Shown: positions 44,172 through 53,518 of the stretch, piece by piece
How positions within the stretch are numbered: position 1 is the stretch's first letter
Layout: each line of letters opens with the position of its first letter
Sequence record: MZ234013.1
From: Escherichia phage vB_EcoM-101112UKE3-1
Length of the DNA: 64,000 nt
Strand: one strand, 5' to 3'
The notes under the pieces: generated by a model
What the model saw: the letters and a program-made list of their open reading frames with translations, nothing else
The model's database searches: none
What the model was told of the DNA's origin: nothing
Position numbers and translations under genes: made by a program

Positions 44172-44856
<685 letters not shown>

Positions 44857-44868
44857 TTTCACAAAGTT

Positions 44869-44898
44869 GTTTACATACTGATGAGGTAGTGATACTAT
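44869..44898 (+). promoter_or_regulatory. T4 early-type promoter with stem-loop (PeSL-like)
   Basis: gtttac -35, 18 nt spacer, TGaTACTAT extended -10; -10 sits in the loop of hairpin tgatgaggta/tacctcatca. Confidence 0.6.
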
Positions 44899-44929
44899 TA
44901 CCTCATCAAAATTAATTAGGAAAATAAAA

Positions 44930-45187
44930 ATGAAAACTTTCAAAGAGTTTGCTACAAAAACTACTATCACTGAATCTTCCCACGGTATGGAAGTAAAGCT
45001 TGGAATGGCTTTAGCTGAAGCTGAGCGTCTTTTCTCTCGTATTAAAGAACTTGCTGCTGCGGTCGATCCTTCATCTTTTAAAGGAGACCAAACTAAAGTT
45101 AAAGCACTTTTAGCATTATGCTCCGATGCAGGAGAAATTGCTAAAAATGGCTCTAAGATGAAGAAACGATTAGAAGATTTAAAATAA
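44930..45187 (+). CDS. internal-protein-like small protein with capsid-targeting-like N-terminus
   Basis: 85 aa; MKTFKEFATK...ITE resembles the T4 internal protein leader (MKTYQEFIAE) cleaved by gp21. Confidence 0.5.
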   Translation: MKTFKEFATKTTITESSHGMEVKLGMALAEAERLFSRIKELAAAVDPSSFKGDQTKVKALLALCSDAGEIAKNGSKMKKRLEDLK

Positions 45188-45199
45188 TTTCACAAAGTT

Positions 45200-45229
45200 G
45201 TTTACATAGGGTTTTAGTTGTGATACTAT
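45200..45229 (+). promoter_or_regulatory. T4 early-type promoter with stem-loop (PeSL-like)
   Basis: 32 nt identical to the 44869 copy, then a different stem (ataggg/ccctat) around the conserved gtgatactat loop. Confidence 0.6.
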
Positions 45230-45263
45230 TACCCTATCAAAACAAAACCAAATGGAAATCAAA

Positions 45264-45497
45264 ATGAAAACTTACCAAGAATTTATTGCTGAAACTGCTG
45301 ATGTAAAAGTTGAGTTTATTTACACTGGCAAGAAAGATAAAATGGGTGAAATGCCTCATGGAGTTCTTCGTGATGCATTAGATAATTTCGGTCAACTCGC
45401 CGCAGAAGATTACGGTGATAAAATTGTTGTTACTGGTCCTGCTGCAGTTATTGAAAAATGGGCAGCAGAAAATAAATCAATTTTTCGTAAAAAATAA
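45264..45497 (+). CDS. internal protein (IP) with canonical capsid targeting sequence
   Basis: Starts MKTYQEFIAE, the T4 IP leader; 77 aa from the ATG at 45264 (track ORF starts at an upstream ATG, 45252). Confidence 0.6.
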   Translation: MKTYQEFIAETADVKVEFIYTGKKDKMGEMPHGVLRDALDNFGQLAAEDYGDKIVVTGPAAVIEKWAAENKSIFRKK

Positions 45498-45527
45498 GTT
45501 TACTTTTAGATAGGGTAGTGATACTAT
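45498..45527 (+). promoter_or_regulatory. T4 early-type promoter with stem-loop (PeSL-like)
   Basis: gtttac, 18 nt, tgatactat inside hairpin gatagggtag/ctaccctatc. Confidence 0.55.
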
Positions 45528-45555
45528 TACCCTATCTACTACTGAGGAGAATAAA

Positions 45556-45741
45556 ATGAAACGTTGTGAATTAATTCGAAATGTTGCTATTGCAATTTCT
45601 GCTTCCGCTTTCAGTTTTTCAATGTTTGTTGGATTTATATGCGGATTATTGACTACGGCAGAAAATGTTTTTTCACTTGTAGTAGCATTTTTAATTGGTT
45701 TAATTGCTATTGTTATGGATAAAATTTCTAAAGGTGAATAA
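45556..45741 (+). CDS. small hydrophobic membrane protein
   Basis: 61 aa, two hydrophobic segments; SD gaggag. Confidence 0.45.
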   Translation: MKRCELIRNVAIAISASAFSFSMFVGFICGLLTTAENVFSLVVAFLIGLIAIVMDKISKGE

Positions 45742-46139
45742 TGAACGTTGAATATTATGTATATGCGGATTACGAAAATAATCCGTCTAAAGATGAAGAT
45801 AATCGTTTAGGTGTAGATGCTTTCGATTCCCCTGCGGCGGCATGGCAATGGGTTGAAAGAACCGATATTCCTTACCGTTATATTGAAGTGGTTGACCACG
45901 CAGGAAACAAGTATCCTAAGGAAGCATATGTTCCTTCCGGGAAGGTAAATTTCCTTTTGTTTGCAGGTGATAATTATTATCCACGTGGTGGGTATACCGA
46001 TTTAATCGCTAAAGCATTCTCTGAAGATGAACTCCGTGACATTATCAAAGAAAATGAAAACAAACCGATGGGTTCTAATCGCTTTGACTGGTGGCAAATC
46101 GTAAATGCCAATACTCATACTATTGTTGATGAAGGCTGA
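45741..46139 (+). CDS. hypothetical protein
   Basis: 132 aa ORF coupled (ATGA) to the upstream ORF. Confidence 0.5.
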   Translation: MNVEYYVYADYENNPSKDEDNRLGVDAFDSPAAAWQWVERTDIPYRYIEVVDHAGNKYPKEAYVPSGKVNFLLFAGDNYYPRGGYTDLIAKAFSEDELRDIIKENENKPMGSNRFDWWQIVNANTHTIVDEG

Positions 46140-46526: not shown

Positions 46527-46599
46527 TGGGAATTAGCCAAGTTGGTAAGGCACTGGATTTTGATTCCAGGATGCAAAGGTTCGAGTCCTTTATTCCCAG
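46527..46599 (+). tRNA. tRNA-Gln (UUG)
   Basis: Cloverleaf by eye: acceptor tgggaat/attccca, anticodon loop ttTTGat, T-arm ggttcgagtcc. Confidence 0.85.
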
Positions 46600-46600
46600 C

Positions 46601-46687
46601 GCGAGAATGGCCAAATTGGTAAAGGCACAGCACTTAAAATGCTGCGGAATGATTTCCTTGTGGGTTCGAGTCCCACTTCTCGCACCA
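46601..46687 (+). tRNA. tRNA-Leu (UAA), class II, encoded CCA
   Basis: Acceptor gcgagaa/ttctcgc, anticodon loop ctTAAaa, long variable arm, gggttcgagtccc T-arm. Confidence 0.85.
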
Positions 46688-46692
46688 AATTT

Positions 46693-46766
<74 letters not shown>

Positions 46767-46776
46767 ATTTAATTTA

Positions 46777-46850
46777 CTCCGTGTAGCTCAGTTTGGTAGA
46801 GCGTCTGCTTTGGGAGCAGAATGTCGTAGGTTCAAATCCTGCCACGGAGA
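46777..46850 (+). tRNA. tRNA-Pro (UGG)
   Basis: Acceptor ctccgtg/cacggag, anticodon loop ttTGGga, T-arm ggttcaaatcc. Confidence 0.85.
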
Positions 46851-46852
46851 CT

Positions 46853-46939
46853 GGAGGCGTGGCAGAGTGGTTTAATGCACCGGTCTTGAAAACCGGCAGT
46901 CGCTCCGGCGACTCATAGGTTCAAATCCTATCGCCTCCG
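46853..46939 (+). tRNA. tRNA-Ser (UGA), class II
   Basis: Acceptor ggaggcg/cgcctcc, anticodon loop ctTGAaa, long variable arm. Confidence 0.85.
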
Positions 46940-46941
46940 TT

Positions 46942-47017
46942 GCTGATTTAGCTCAGTAGGTAGAGCAACTCACTTGTAATGAGAAGGTCGGCGGTTCGAT
47001 TCCGTCAATCAGCACCA
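46942..47017 (+). tRNA. tRNA-Thr (UGU)
   Basis: Acceptor gctgatt/aatcagc, anticodon loop ctTGTaa, ggttcgattcc T-arm, CCA. Confidence 0.85.
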
Positions 47018-47018
47018 A

Positions 47019-47095
47019 GGCCCTGTAGCTCAATGGTTAGCAGCAGTCCCCTCATAAGGGAAAGGTTACCAGTTCAAATCTGGTCTGGGTCACCA
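47019..47095 (+). tRNA. tRNA-Ile (anticodon CAU, lysidine type; a naive predictor would call Met)
   Basis: Anticodon loop ctCATaa, T-arm agttcaaatct, CCA; T4 carries a CAU-anticodon tRNA-Ile at this position. Confidence 0.8.
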
Positions 47096-47104
47096 AATTA
47101 ATTA

Positions 47105-47191
47105 GGGGAGTTATCCCGTAGAGGTAGCGGTGTGGACTGTAAATCCATTGTCATTGCGACTCGGGTGGTTCGACTCCATCACTCCCCACCA
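47105..47191 (+). tRNA. candidate tRNA-Tyr (GUA), class II with long variable arm
   Basis: Perfect 7-bp acceptor ggggagt/actcccc, anticodon loop ctGTAaa, 15-nt variable arm, T-arm ggtgg-ttcgact-ccatc, CCA; resembles E. coli tRNA-Tyr. Confidence 0.65.
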
Positions 47192-47237
47192 ATTTATGAC
47201 TCGTCGTGAGACGCTCAGTTCTTTATTAAGGACTGAT

Positions 47238-47903
47238 ATGCATTTTTATCTTTATAAAATAACAAATAAAATTAATAATAAAATTTATATTGGTGTGCAT
47301 TCTACCGAAAATTTAGATGATGGATATATGGGTTCTGGTAAATTATTAAAAAGAGCCCAAGACAGGTATGGTATAGAAAATTTTTCTAAAGAAATATTAG
47401 AATATTTTGATGATAAAGAATCTATGCTTGAAGCCGAGAAAAATATTGTTACAGAAGAGTTTTTAAATAGACCAGATGTGTATAATTTAAAACTTGGCGG
47501 TGAAGGCGGATGGGATCATATAAATATTCCTGAGATGCTAAATCAGAAGAAAGACGCTAGTTTAAAAGGAGCTAAATCGTTTAAGTCACGTTTTAAAAAT
47601 GATATTTTACTTCAAGAAAAATATCGTCAAAATGGTTCAAATGTATTTAAACGTTTATGGTCAACTCCTGAATACAAGGAAAAATTTTTAAATAATAGCA
47701 GATTTTTAAATAAGCATCATACTCTTGAAACTATTAATAAAATGAAAGAAATTCACGCTAAAAATAATCACCAGAAAGGTGAAAAGAATTCCCAATTTGG
47801 TATGATGTGGATTCATTCATTAGATGAAAAAGTTTCTAAACGTATTAAGAAAACTGACCCAATTCCAGAAGGATGGTTTAAAGGTCGAAAAATGAAATTT
47901 TAA
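47238..47903 (+). mobile_element. segB: GIY-YIG homing endonuclease SegB in the tRNA cluster
   Basis: MHFYLYKITNKINNKIYIGVHST...GYMGSG GIY-YIG motif; 221 aa from the ATG at 47238, as T4 SegB; the longer track ORF would start inside the tRNA. Confidence 0.8.
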
Positions 47904-47908
47904 ATTAC

Positions 47909-47983
47909 GTCCCGCTGGTGTAATGGATAGCATACGATCCTTCTAAGTTTGCGGTCCTGGTTCGATCCCAGGGCGGGATACCA
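47909..47983 (+). tRNA. tRNA-Arg (UCU)
   Basis: Acceptor gtcccgc/gcgggat, anticodon loop ctTCTaa, T-arm cctggttcgatcccagg, CCA. Confidence 0.85.
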
Positions 47984-47989
47984 AATGAG

Positions 47990-48296
47990 AAACCGGGTCG
48001 CTACCGGTAAGTCGTCGGACTGATGTTCCCTGTTTAAGGACTGGCATTAATAAATCTTTATGTTTTGTTAATGCCCCCTTATATCACAGCAGAAACGGCG
48101 CACCGAATTATCGATTCGAGGAAATATCTTTGCCATAAGCCGAGTAGCGTTTTTGACGGAACGTTCGGATATGGTCGAGATATGGCCTTTTAAAAATATT
48201 GAGTAGCGTCAACTGCTTAATAACCGGGTTCGAATCCCGGCGTTTCGTACAAACACTTGCCTTAGCAGGTGGAACCCCGACAAGGTTGCCGCAAGG
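47990..48296 (+). ncRNA. candidate small stable RNAs downstream of tRNA-Arg (T4 species 1 / species 2 RNA-like)
   Basis: About 300 nt with no ORF, GC-rich helices and a tRNA-like T-arm (ccgggttcgaatcccgg); T4 has rnaC/rnaD next to tRNA-Arg. Boundaries not determined. Confidence 0.3.
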
Positions 48297-48330
48297 CTTA
48301 GCCCCGACCGAAAGGTTGGGGCTTTTTAGT
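48297..48330 (+). terminator. rho-independent terminator (copy 1 of a duplicated terminator)
   Basis: cttagccccgaccgaaaggttggggcttttt: 8-bp stem, GAAA loop, T-tract; followed by TATAAATA at 48330..48337. Confidence 0.65.
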
Positions 48331-48373
48331 ATAAATAAGTATATTAAAACCCCGAATTAAAACAGGAAATAAG

Positions 48374-48847
48374 ATGAAATCATATACTCAATTTTTAAAT
48401 GAAGCGGTGTTAAATGAAGCATCTAGCACTGAAATTCAAGCTGTTGCAAAAGCTGCCATTGCCGCGGGTAAATATTCCTATAAAGATGCTTCCGATGAAT
48501 CACGATTCCAATTTGCTCGTGATATGAAAGCCGAAGGATTTACAGGGAATGCAGTTAGTATGGCTTGGAAAAGTTTAGTTGCTACTGGAGCTGCTTTTGC
48601 AAAGGCTTCAGGTAAACCTGCTCCTAAAGCAGATCCTAAAGTCACACAAGAGAAAAATATTGTTAAAGGAATTATCTCCAAATATGAAGCTATCCTTAAA
48701 GAGCTTTTAGTAATCAAAACTGAAGGCCAAAAGCTAGCTCGTGCTTATAGTTTCAAAGATAACCCACATGTTCACTCTCTTGAGTATGTTGAAGACATCC
48801 AAAAAATTATTAAAGACCGCATTTGGTCTGCTAAACAAATCAAATAA
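48374..48847 (+). CDS. internal-protein-like protein with capsid-targeting-like leader
   Basis: 157 aa; MKSYTQFLNE-A resembles the IP leader; late promoter box about 37 nt upstream; flanked by duplicated terminators. Confidence 0.5.
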   Translation: MKSYTQFLNEAVLNEASSTEIQAVAKAAIAAGKYSYKDASDESRFQFARDMKAEGFTGNAVSMAWKSLVATGAAFAKASGKPAPKADPKVTQEKNIVKGIISKYEAILKELLVIKTEGQKLARAYSFKDNPHVHSLEYVEDIQKIIKDRIWSAKQIK

Positions 48848-48851
48848 CATT

Positions 48852-48885
48852 CTTAGCCCCGACCAAAAGGTTGGGGCTTTTTGGT
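48852..48885 (+). terminator. rho-independent terminator (copy 2, near-identical to 48297..48330)
   Basis: cttagccccgaccaaaaggttggggcttttt. Confidence 0.65.
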
Positions 48886-49015
48886 ATCTAGGCCTTTCCG
48901 GGCCTCTCTAGACATCATTTAGTTTCTACCCTTTATAATATATTATCCTATCTTTTAATTGCCCCTCCCTGCCCTAGAATTCCCTAAAACTTTTTAAAAA
49001 TTTTTTCACAAAACT

Positions 49016-49045
49016 GTTTACATCCCTGTTCTTCCATGGTACTAT
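49016..49045 (+). promoter_or_regulatory. T4 early-type promoter (class with tggtactatacaactatc)
   Basis: gtttac, 18 nt, TGgTACTAT; same module at about 59868 and 63456. Confidence 0.55.
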
Positions 49046-49087
49046 ACAACTATCAACTACTGATACAAAAACAACTTGGAGAATGAA

Positions 49088-49351
49088 ATGGATAATTACG
49101 GCGAACTGTTCAACTTCTTTATGAAATGTGTTTCAGAAGATTTCGGTCGTACAGTGAATGATATTAAAGTTATCGGTCCTGACCATCCGATGTTTGAAAC
49201 CTATGCAGTAATGGGTAATGAAGATGGTCAGTGGTATACTGTAAAGGTTGTGATTAACATGTTCACTGCTGAAGGTTATGTTAAACTGTCTTCTAAAGTT
49301 TACCATGATAACGATGAAATCGCAGAAGAATATTTCAATAATATGAAATAA
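49088..49351 (+). CDS. hypothetical protein
   Basis: 87 aa from the ATG at 49088 (SD ggag); track ORF starts at a TTG at 49076. Confidence 0.5.
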   Translation: MDNYGELFNFFMKCVSEDFGRTVNDIKVIGPDHPMFETYAVMGNEDGQWYTVKVVINMFTAEGYVKLSSKVYHDNDEIAEEYFNNMK

Positions 49352-52511: not shown

Positions 52512-53042
<531 letters not shown>

Positions 53043-53046
53043 AGTT

Positions 53047-53077
53047 GTTTACTTTCTCCTAGAATTGTGATAGTATA
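53047..53077 (+). promoter_or_regulatory. T4 early-type promoter upstream of denV
   Basis: gtttac, spacer, tgtgatagtat. Confidence 0.5.
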
Positions 53078-53101
53078 TTCACAGTTACTTGGAGGGATAA
53101 A

Positions 53102-53518
53102 ATGACTCGTATTAATTTGACTTTAGTATCTGAACTTGCTGATCAACATTTAATCGCAGAATACCGTGAATTGCCGCGTGTTTTTGGTATAGTTCGTAAG
53201 CATGTGGCAAACGGTAAGCGCGTTAAAGATTTTAAAATATCTTCTAAATTTATTTTAGGTTCTGGTCATGTTACTTTCTTTTACGATAAGTTAGAATTTT
53301 TGCGAAAGCGTCAATCGGACATTATAACGGAATGCTTAAAACGCGGGTTCAGTATAAAAGATACTGAAGTTCCTGACATCAGCGATATTCCAGTAGAATG
53401 GAAAAATGATTATAATCCATGTAAATCAGCTATTAAGTTGAGTCAACAACGACTCGATGAAAAAATTTTAATGAAGCCACACTGGTATAAGTATTACGGC
53501 AAAAATATTTACATTTAA
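53102..53518 (+). CDS. denV: endonuclease V (pyrimidine dimer DNA glycosylase, DenV)
   Basis: 138 aa; [29 protein letters not shown] matches T4 endonuclease V. Confidence 0.9.

Follow-up and report, generated by a model that had tools for sequence, protein, structure and literature searches.

In Escherichia phage vB_EcoM-101112UKE3-1 (sequence record MZ234013.1), a Tequatrovirus (T4-like), the interval between rnaC and e.8 holds a single gene for a protein of 157 aa, here called gene A, that lies between two near-identical predicted terminators, T1 and T2 (Table 1). The stretch analyzed, referred to below as the window, comprises 64,000 nt of this genome; its gene order is that of T4, and its plus strand corresponds to the T4 minus strand. 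A 1.5-kb query matched 753 phage records, almost all of them from T4-like coliphages and their relatives. An earlier note on this DNA, written from the sequence alone, had described two terminators differing at two positions around a single gene, a late box between the first terminator and the gene, and an N-terminus resembling a capsid-targeting leader, and had proposed that the direct repeats mark a cassette gained or lost by recombination. The basic layout was borne out by repeat finding, folding and the calling of open reading frames (ORFs). The repeat finder returned a single two-copy family of direct repeats with starts 555 bp apart and 34/36 positions identical (94%); the two differences (repeat positions 14 and 32) are as the note had it, while the repeat is 36 nt long and not 34 nt.

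T1 and T2 were both called terminator-like; in each, a stem of 10 bp, 7 of them G-C, is capped by a tetraloop and followed by TTTTT. The folding energy is -20.3 kcal/mol (z = -3.6) for T1 and -19.7 kcal/mol (z = -4.3) for T2. By prediction, both have the G+C-rich hairpin directly followed by a U-run that characterizes an intrinsic terminator, and counterpart elements in phages NBG2, G8 and fPS-90 carry terminator annotation from other groups. The 31-nt core of the repeat occurs at exactly two sites in the 64-kb window when up to 3 mismatches are allowed, and at 0 sites in 100 shuffles. T1 is predicted to close the tRNA/rnaC unit and forms the left end-point of an insertion/deletion (indel); T2 is predicted to close the late transcript of gene A and forms the right end-point. 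A terminator scan of IMG/VR returned 5 contigs only, too few for population counts, and GenBank phage records were therefore used.

In T4 late transcription, which depends on gp55, gp33 and gp45, an 8-bp box suffices and no upstream element is needed. A consensus box of this kind, TATAAATA, lies between T1 and gene A, as had been claimed, and shares 3 nt with T1. The window contains 26 copies of it, where 10.2 would be expected. The box is kept in 9/9 Tequatrovirus-type gene A alleles that were read, while the spacer downstream of it is merely 54-91% identical; empty alleles (described below) are without it, and TATCTAGG stands there instead. Its distance from the start codon falls within the ~30-40 nt of T4 late promoters, for which no -35 element is required, and it is accordingly predicted to be active as a late promoter, a prediction that the annotators of fPS-90 had also made. 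Within the 555-bp unit, the late box and a ribosome-binding site precede gene A, and a terminator of the unit's own, a copy of the upstream rnaC terminator, follows it; with a promoter of 8 bp and a terminator of ~30 bp, such a unit would amount to a complete portable expression module. Gene A itself is, on codon-level comparison, a real gene, with a dN/dS of 0.03-0.17 that indicates purifying selection. An ORF on the opposite strand (48478-48717) was considered and rejected, codon-level selection fitting the plus frame. By tblastn, gene A was found in 511 records, always as a single copy and always under the name 'hypothetical protein'; the number of sequenced phages that carry it is put at about 470-510.

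Table 1. Features of the gene A site and of related loci in the window.
Feature	Position	Strand	Remarks
T1, terminator copy 1, CTTAGCCCCGACCGAAAGGTTGGGGCTTTTTAGTAT	48297..48332	+	hairpin 48300-48323; T-run 48323-48327
Late-promoter consensus box TATAAATA	48330..48337	+	first 3 nt are the last 3 nt of T1; ends 36 nt before ATG
Shine-Dalgarno-like AGGA	48364..48367	+	6 nt upstream of ATG; read from sequence
Gene A, 157 aa, ATG start, phrog_2280	48374..48847	+	basic, Lys-rich, all-helical; probable internal (capsid-packaged) protein
Leader MKSYTQFLNE/AVLNE/A, capsid-targeting-sequence-like	48374..48418	+	two L-x-E prohead-protease motifs, after residues 10 and 15
T2, terminator copy 2, CTTAGCCCCGACCAAAAGGTTGGGGCTTTTTGGTAT	48852..48887	+	hairpin 48855-48878
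rnaD (species 2 RNA) homologue	47985..48104	+	from T4 annotation and sequence, transferred by eye
rnaC (species 1 RNA) homologue, last gene of tRNA/stable-RNA unit	48111..48249	+	transferred from T4 annotation
e.8 early promoter, sigma-70-type, TTTACA-17-TACTAT with TG	49017..49045	+	promoter scan; identical sequence in T4
e.8 homologue, 88 aa, first conserved gene rightward	49085..49351	+	ORF and T4 comparison
ipI-locus gene 1	44930-45187		leader MKTFKEFATKTTITE; phrog_3499
ipI-locus gene 2	45264-45497		leader MKTYQEFIAE; phrog_8111

Genomes with a single terminator and no gene, which the earlier note had proposed looking for, were found in T4, phage T2, RB6, PST and others, empty at exactly this site. 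In T4 the rnaC tail is followed by GCCGCAACGG and TTAGCCCCGACCGAAAGGTTGGGGCTTTTTGGTATCTAAGCC and then by the right flank of the window, so that the one terminator has the flank of T1 as its left neighbor and the flank of T2 as its right neighbor, and the gene is absent. In the window, the tail of T2 and the right flank run on as they do at the empty site of T4 and phage T2. The T4-like arrangement is shared by phage T2, RB6 and Salmonella phage Lv5cm, and the site is likewise empty in PST, ACG-C40 and Mosigvirus LF82-4. CJY920 is empty too, and its single terminator has an AAAA loop, which is the copy-2 state of the window. From an anchor in rnaC to e.8 the distance is 253 nt in empty genomes vs. 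807 nt in the window, and the difference of 554 nt corresponds to one repeat period (±1 nt). The frequency of the empty allele was assessed with an 88-nt query across the empty junction, for which coverage of at least 80% is possible solely at an empty site. The query was contiguous in 78/565 matching records (phage T2, PST and ACG-C40 among them), and the remaining records covered at most 70% of it, matching the terminator together with one flank, left or right.

The indel end-points of T4, phage T2, CJY920 and LF82-4 all fall inside the terminator copies. The single terminator of LF82-4 is chimeric, being T1-like through the GAAA loop and T2-like from GGTAT on, which places the junction within the ~16 shared bases GGTTGGGGCTTTTTGG. 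Because the late box begins with the 3 nt in which the repeat ends, a deletion between T1 and T2 would take the promoter out cleanly and leave TATCTAGG, as in T4. Judged by their sequences, T1 and T2 are homologous and not independent inventions. Their identity exceeds the hairpin, reaching CTT on the 5′ side and the T-run plus 5 nt (xGTAT) on the 3′ side, and in some genomes it includes the loop. Within each lineage, moreover, the two copies have the same variant of the 5′ arm, GACC in 7 Tequatrovirus-type genomes and TTCC in 4 Mosigvirus-type genomes. GACC gives a perfect stem, and TTCC gives an uncompensated 2x2 internal mismatch with a weaker hairpin; that both copies share a lineage-specific stem variant points to common ancestry or gene conversion as opposed to parallel selection. 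Could T1 and T2 be independent terminators that are alike merely as strong terminators, with no role in gene gain or loss? Such an account would fit cassettes B and C and Klebsiella phage KpV477 (see below), in which the terminator–late box–gene–terminator layout persists with a downstream terminator that bears no relation to T1. It would have to accommodate a 31-nt match expected 0 times by chance, identity in non-structural bases and loop, a stem-weakening variant present in both copies, and indel end-points and inter-genome breaks in identity located exactly in the copies. These comparisons leave it largely refuted, and we regard it as very improbable.

The breaks in identity are evident where genomes carrying gene A are compared. 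Between the window and G8, identity is 0.96 in the left flank, 0.94 in T1, 0.54 in the spacer from promoter to ATG, 0.77 in gene A, 1.00 in T2, 0.95 in the right spacer and 0.99 in e.8. Synonymous divergence (dS) is 0.6-1.1 in gene A vs. 0.09-0.14 in the adjacent e.8. The left flank is 88-99% identical among relatives, and the nucleotide identity of e.8 is 98-99% in Tequatrovirus relatives with gene A at just 77-84%. Together, the identity breaks and the dS contrast show that the cassette interior has a history different from that of its flanks, with the terminators as seams.

Other cassettes occupy the same site. These came to light in an allele survey of an even-step sample of 699 records, which fell into several size classes, representatives of each being read. 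In fPS-90 and HZ_ZJUN4 a terminator, gene A and a second terminator are followed by a second cassette, B, while FL12 and ESh27 have cassette B without A. The cassette B ORF (187 aa, leader MKTYAEFLTEA) was found by tblastn in 165 records, as a single copy named 'hypothetical protein,' and the cassette ends with a different hairpin, CCCTATCTAAATGATAGGG, that has only GGGCTTTTTGGTATCT in common with the gene A terminator. At the cassette B junctions (L003 1330-1345 and 1995-2030; L004 770-790 and 1440-1465) only GGGCTTTT(T), which includes a GGGC motif, is held in common, and this suggests that microhomology may be enough for turnover at the rnaC–e.8 site. A third cassette, C, is present at the same site in Mosigvirus mar005P1 (vB_Eco_mar005P1; L026 2340-3090), where T1 and a perfect TATAAATA precede a 208-aa ORF beginning MYTFNEFLAETEVITEA (leader MYTFNEFLAE) and an unrelated terminator of its own, GGGGACTTCGGTCCCC. 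In the Mosigvirus-type phages JK45, SF, DCP548 and AV109, a 75%-identical gene A lies between two hairpins alike at ~26/36 positions. In Klebsiella phage KpV477 (Jiaodavirus), GGGGCTTTTTAGTATAAATA stands upstream of a gene with the gene A N-terminal domain, and the downstream hairpin is mostly unlike the upstream one. The same layout with unrelated flanking sequences in relatives had been named beforehand as the result that would mark the repeats as independent terminators, and this Klebsiella phage, a distant relative with largely dissimilar terminators, answers to that description in part. The KpV477 gene of the gene A family (L007 1795-2330) is broken by an in-frame TAA following codon 78, and its annotation gives two small coding sequences; it is either a pseudogene or a product of sequencing error, the version in other Klebsiella phages being intact at 177 aa (P0010).

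The similarity among A, B and C is limited to the leader. The possibility that A and B are paralogues was considered and rejected, BLASTP and profile alignment being restricted to a leader of 10-11 aa. Both match phrog_2280 over its full length, and since their mutual similarity ends at the leader despite these matches, phrog_2280 looks like a composite joined by the capsid-targeting leader. Separately, a chimeric ORF of 94 aa on a 2.9-kb contig from a public sequencing run (P0013) combines a trna.3-like N-terminal part (counterpart at 45741-46139 of the window) with the last ~32 residues of gene A in frame, which implies that the entire tRNA/segB/rnaD/rnaC region was deleted in nature, with an end-point inside gene A.

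The N-terminus of gene A, MKSYTQFLNEA, matches the leader of T4 IPII and IPIII, MKTYQEFIAEA. In IPIII the first 10 residues suffice to target the capsid; positions 4 and 7 matter for targeting, positions 8 and 10 for processing, and gp21 cuts after L/I-x-E (PMC9026906). All of the functionally mapped positions of this capsid-targeting sequence (CTS) are present in gene A (Y4, F7, L8, and E10; 4/4), and a second LNE motif at residues 13-15 follows the first at residues 8-10, from which removal of the leader by gp21 after L-N-E may be expected. In the six frames of the window the leader pattern occurs in 3 ORFs against 0.02 expected, the other two being genes of the ipI locus whose PHROGs are annotated as internal head or virion protein. 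The gene A protein has a pI of 9.5 and 20 Lys, and its mature form would be ~16 kDa; the cassette B protein also has a pI of 9.5, and the size and basic composition of gene A match those of IPII and IPIII (pI 9.3-9.5). An AlphaFold2 model (pLDDT 75) is all helical: the N-domain has three helices, and a Lys/Pro/Ala linker separates it from a helical hairpin, which is long. The family is tiny, since a profile run exhaustively against 1.84 billion representatives picked up just 13 members, every one of T4-like-phage type. One orthologue, g140 of phage fD1, is identical at 155/157 aa. Liquid chromatography–tandem mass spectrometry (LC-MS/MS) of purified virions placed fD1 g140 among the particle-associated proteins at a strict threshold, and the neighboring g139 (e.8) and g138 are absent from the particle-associated list (PMC8309999 Table S3). 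The resemblance to a capsid-targeting leader that the earlier note had seen is thus upheld at the critical positions, and an orthologue has been detected in purified virions. With these leader positions, with small basic proteins at the site that are alike in the leader only, and with virion detection of the orthologue, the gene A product is a probable internal protein of the T-even type.

In our reading, T-even phages have at this site a third internal-protein locus, occupied by a polymorphic cassette for an accessory gene, with the terminator copies as recombination end-points; we put the probability of this reading at roughly 0.7. Several points weigh against it. Cassettes B and C and the KpV477 version end with terminators unlike T1, which argues that twin copies are unnecessary for turnover at the site. 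The earlier proposal of gain or loss via the repeats is supported, with this qualification and with loss likelier than recent gain. Mosig-type gene A and cassette B have AATAAATA in place of TATAAATA. The similarity of T1 and T2 could derive in part from secondary gene conversion. A chimeric single terminator fits a pre-insertion ancestral target equally well, junctions alone being directionless. The locus is atypical for the internal-protein family, since its flanks are terminators and not early-promoter/inverted-repeat elements. Pfam, NCBIfam and PDB sequence searches with gene A gave no match, and a structural search of its model in PDB and BFVD returned its own orthologues only, so that the fold offers no functional lead. 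Lastly, the particle proteome of fD1 has low specificity, 113-137 of 277 gene products being called particle-associated (PMC8309999).

The last three of these points would also suit a gene A product that is a late protein but not an internal one, having a cytoplasmic late function or acting as an assembly factor, with the leader resemblance incidental. The database names, all 'hypothetical protein,' the lack of Pfam, NCBIfam and structural matches, the many non-structural proteins in the fD1 particle proteome and a locus unlike the classical ones can all be cited for it. Against it, the leader is the sole conserved part across the otherwise unrelated A, B and C and is retained even in the most distant members of the gene A family, the critical CTS positions are all kept where chance would supply 0.02 such ORFs per window, the size and Lys-rich composition are those of IPII and IPIII, and the orthologue passes the strict virion threshold where its neighbors do not. 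A non-internal function consequently seems unlikely to us.

As regards direction, loss of an old resident gene is probable and is favored over recent gain. Three genera, Tequatrovirus, Mosigvirus and Jiaodavirus, carry gene A or its N-domain at this position, with a divergence parallel to that of the genomes (95-100% identity in Tequatrovirus, ~75% in Mosigvirus, and ~50% for the N-domain in Jiaodavirus), the empty alleles are in a minority (78/565), and they occur in two backgrounds, Tequatrovirus and Mosigvirus, with different terminator states. Conversely, the single-terminator site of T4 and phage T2 could be ancestral, the cassette having entered when the resident terminator recombined homologously with a sequence resembling it on a small donor molecule, either circular or linear, as in the mini-circle model of the promoter-early stem-loop (PeSL) elements; entry in this manner would leave one terminator on each side automatically. 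Mini-circles formed by recombination between flanking stem-loops have been shown in RB49 and phi1, with one crossover within a hairpin loop (PMC2839356). Gain would also agree with the sharing of one site by A, B and C in varying combinations, and with the fact that T1 and T2 are alike at 34-35/36 positions in Tequatrovirus, a near-identity that seems young beside the divergence of gene A. Nevertheless, a gene A divergence that follows genus divergence at one site implies long residence, and a minority of empty alleles in two genera with differing chimeric terminators is what repeated losses would give, and we hold recent gain to have little probability. Even where gene A was lost from an old site, cassettes B and C may have arrived by circular-intermediate insertion, as for PeSL elements.

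If the site is an internal-protein cassette of this kind, its working can be proposed as follows. T1 would halt transcription arriving from the tRNA/rnaD/rnaC unit; late in infection, gp55-type machinery would initiate gene A mRNA at TATAAATA, and T2 would halt that mRNA ahead of the e.8 early promoter. The 10-residue capsid-targeting leader would bring the product into the prohead core, where the prohead protease gp21 would trim it after L-N-E, and the basic mature protein would be packaged with DNA and presumably injected. T4 internal proteins occupy two loci, and Ip1, Ip2 and Ip3 each inhibit a different GmrSD type IV restriction enzyme (PMC12373910). By analogy with Ip1-3, the injected gene A protein would counter host defense, which is our best guess at its role. 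Recombination between T1 and T2, or replication slippage, would remove the cassette and leave one chimeric terminator, as in T4, and the terminator copies might also act as exchange points for divergent alleles between co-infecting phages.

A bolder and, in our estimation, doubtful extension is that a hairpin with a late box in its tail is the late-gene counterpart of a PeSL, that is, a specific structure-prone recombination site. Circular intermediates could then carry complete modules of late promoter, CTS gene and terminator, such as A, B and C, from place to place in one T-even phage or from one phage to another during co-infection, and the rnaC–e.8 site could be a dedicated integration hotspot for injected anti-defense proteins, for example against new variants of GmrSD or other type IV restriction systems. 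Work on T-even internal-protein loci and on PeSL elements has already established the underlying concept, and the mechanism will not surprise a specialist; neither the locus nor its proteins appear to have been annotated. That the third locus is empty in T4 may explain the 'hypothetical protein' annotation in every record seen. The proteins of the locus are ready-made candidates for new injected anti-defense factors, and natural isolates that are A+, B+, A+B+ or empty, with nearly identical flanks, form a built-in comparison set. The site is also a very clean natural case of loss and exchange of a terminator-bounded module, the chimeric terminators mapping the crossover to ~16 nt.

The surroundings of the site are those of a T4-like genome, with the tRNA/rnaD/rnaC unit on the left and the e.8 early promoter on the right. 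Upstream lie, in order, eight tRNAs, a segB-like GIY-YIG ORF, tRNA-Arg, and then rnaD and rnaC. In T4 the rnaC–e.8 interval is geneless, and ipI is on the opposite side of the tRNA cluster. An Rfam scan of the region returned tRNAs only, with no model for rnaC or rnaD, and the hairpins match no cis-regulatory family in it. The window has nine tRNA genes (46527-47983) vs. eight in T4, the additional one being tRNA-Tyr (47105-47191). The ORF-finder start of the segB-like GIY-YIG gene (GTG, 47130) overlaps this tRNA, and the real start is therefore probably more internal, near MHFYLYKITNK.

Polymorphic internal-protein loci (ipI; ipII/ipIII) with a conserved leader and repeated flanks were reportedly described by Repoila and colleagues in 1994 (EMBO J 13:4181), and Mullaney and Black are said to have worked on T-even internal proteins in 1996. 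Gene A resembles this family in its leader of ~10 aa with an aromatic residue 4, F7, L/I8 and E10, in belonging to small basic proteins with leader-only similarity, in its variable presence among close relatives, in the repeated regulatory sequence on both sides, and in the occurrence of an orthologue in virions. It differs in its site, a third locus from rnaC to e.8, and it is unrelated to IPI-III in sequence and predicted fold. An intrinsic terminator, in two copies, and a late box make up its flanks, whereas the classical loci have a ~70-bp early promoter with an overlapping inverted repeat; such early-promoter/inverted-repeat elements were found around T4 ipI, ipII and ipIII and around the ipI-locus genes of the window itself. 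That ipI locus (44855-45545) has two CTS genes, each bracketed by the direct repeats aatttcacaaagttgtttacata...gtgatactattaccc, an early promoter plus inverted repeat of the PeSL/Repoila type. The window is without ipIII and ipII: the lysozyme gene e (ending at 53042) abuts denV (starting at 53102) with one early-promoter/inverted-repeat element between them (53030-53110), where T4 has the order e, ipIII, ipII, denV with one such element before each. By this comparison of gene order, the e–denV junction is an 'empty' allele of a classical internal-protein locus and a mirror image of the finding at rnaC–e.8. The T-even internal proteins have been reviewed (PMC3012670; PMC9026906).

In T4-type phages, the PeSL elements (Arbiol et al., 2010, PMC2839356; Comeau et al., 2014, PMC4122927) are mobile regulatory cassettes with a composite motif that includes a strong sigma-70-like early promoter, and they carry the principle of the internal-protein loci over to further hyperplastic regions. 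Like them, the gene A site has stable intergenic stem-loops, predicted terminators, that are repeated around a single non-essential ORF or ORFan, and end-points of indels or replacements that lie in the repeats; in PeSL, too, a crossover has been mapped inside a hairpin. Unlike them, the repeat of the window is without a sigma-70 early promoter, a promoter scan of 48290-48373 and 48848-48900 having found no sigma-70-like site, and the cassette has as its promoter a late box, only part of which lies within the repeat. The orthologue of T1 in T4 is the lone hairpin after rnaC, the terminator of the tRNA/species 1 RNA unit; T1 differs from that terminator in being duplicated in the window, where the second copy would serve a separate late unit.

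The gene A site can also be compared with deletions between short repeats in T4. Singer and co-workers reportedly described T4 deletions between short direct repeats, and Mosig, as cited in PMC2839356, is said to have associated a GGGC motif with T4 deletion end-points. The gene A site shares with such deletions a precise excision with end-points in a short direct repeat, and the cassette B junctions carry GGGC in GGGCTTTT(T); it differs from them in consisting of natural alleles spread across genomes as opposed to deletions selected in the laboratory.

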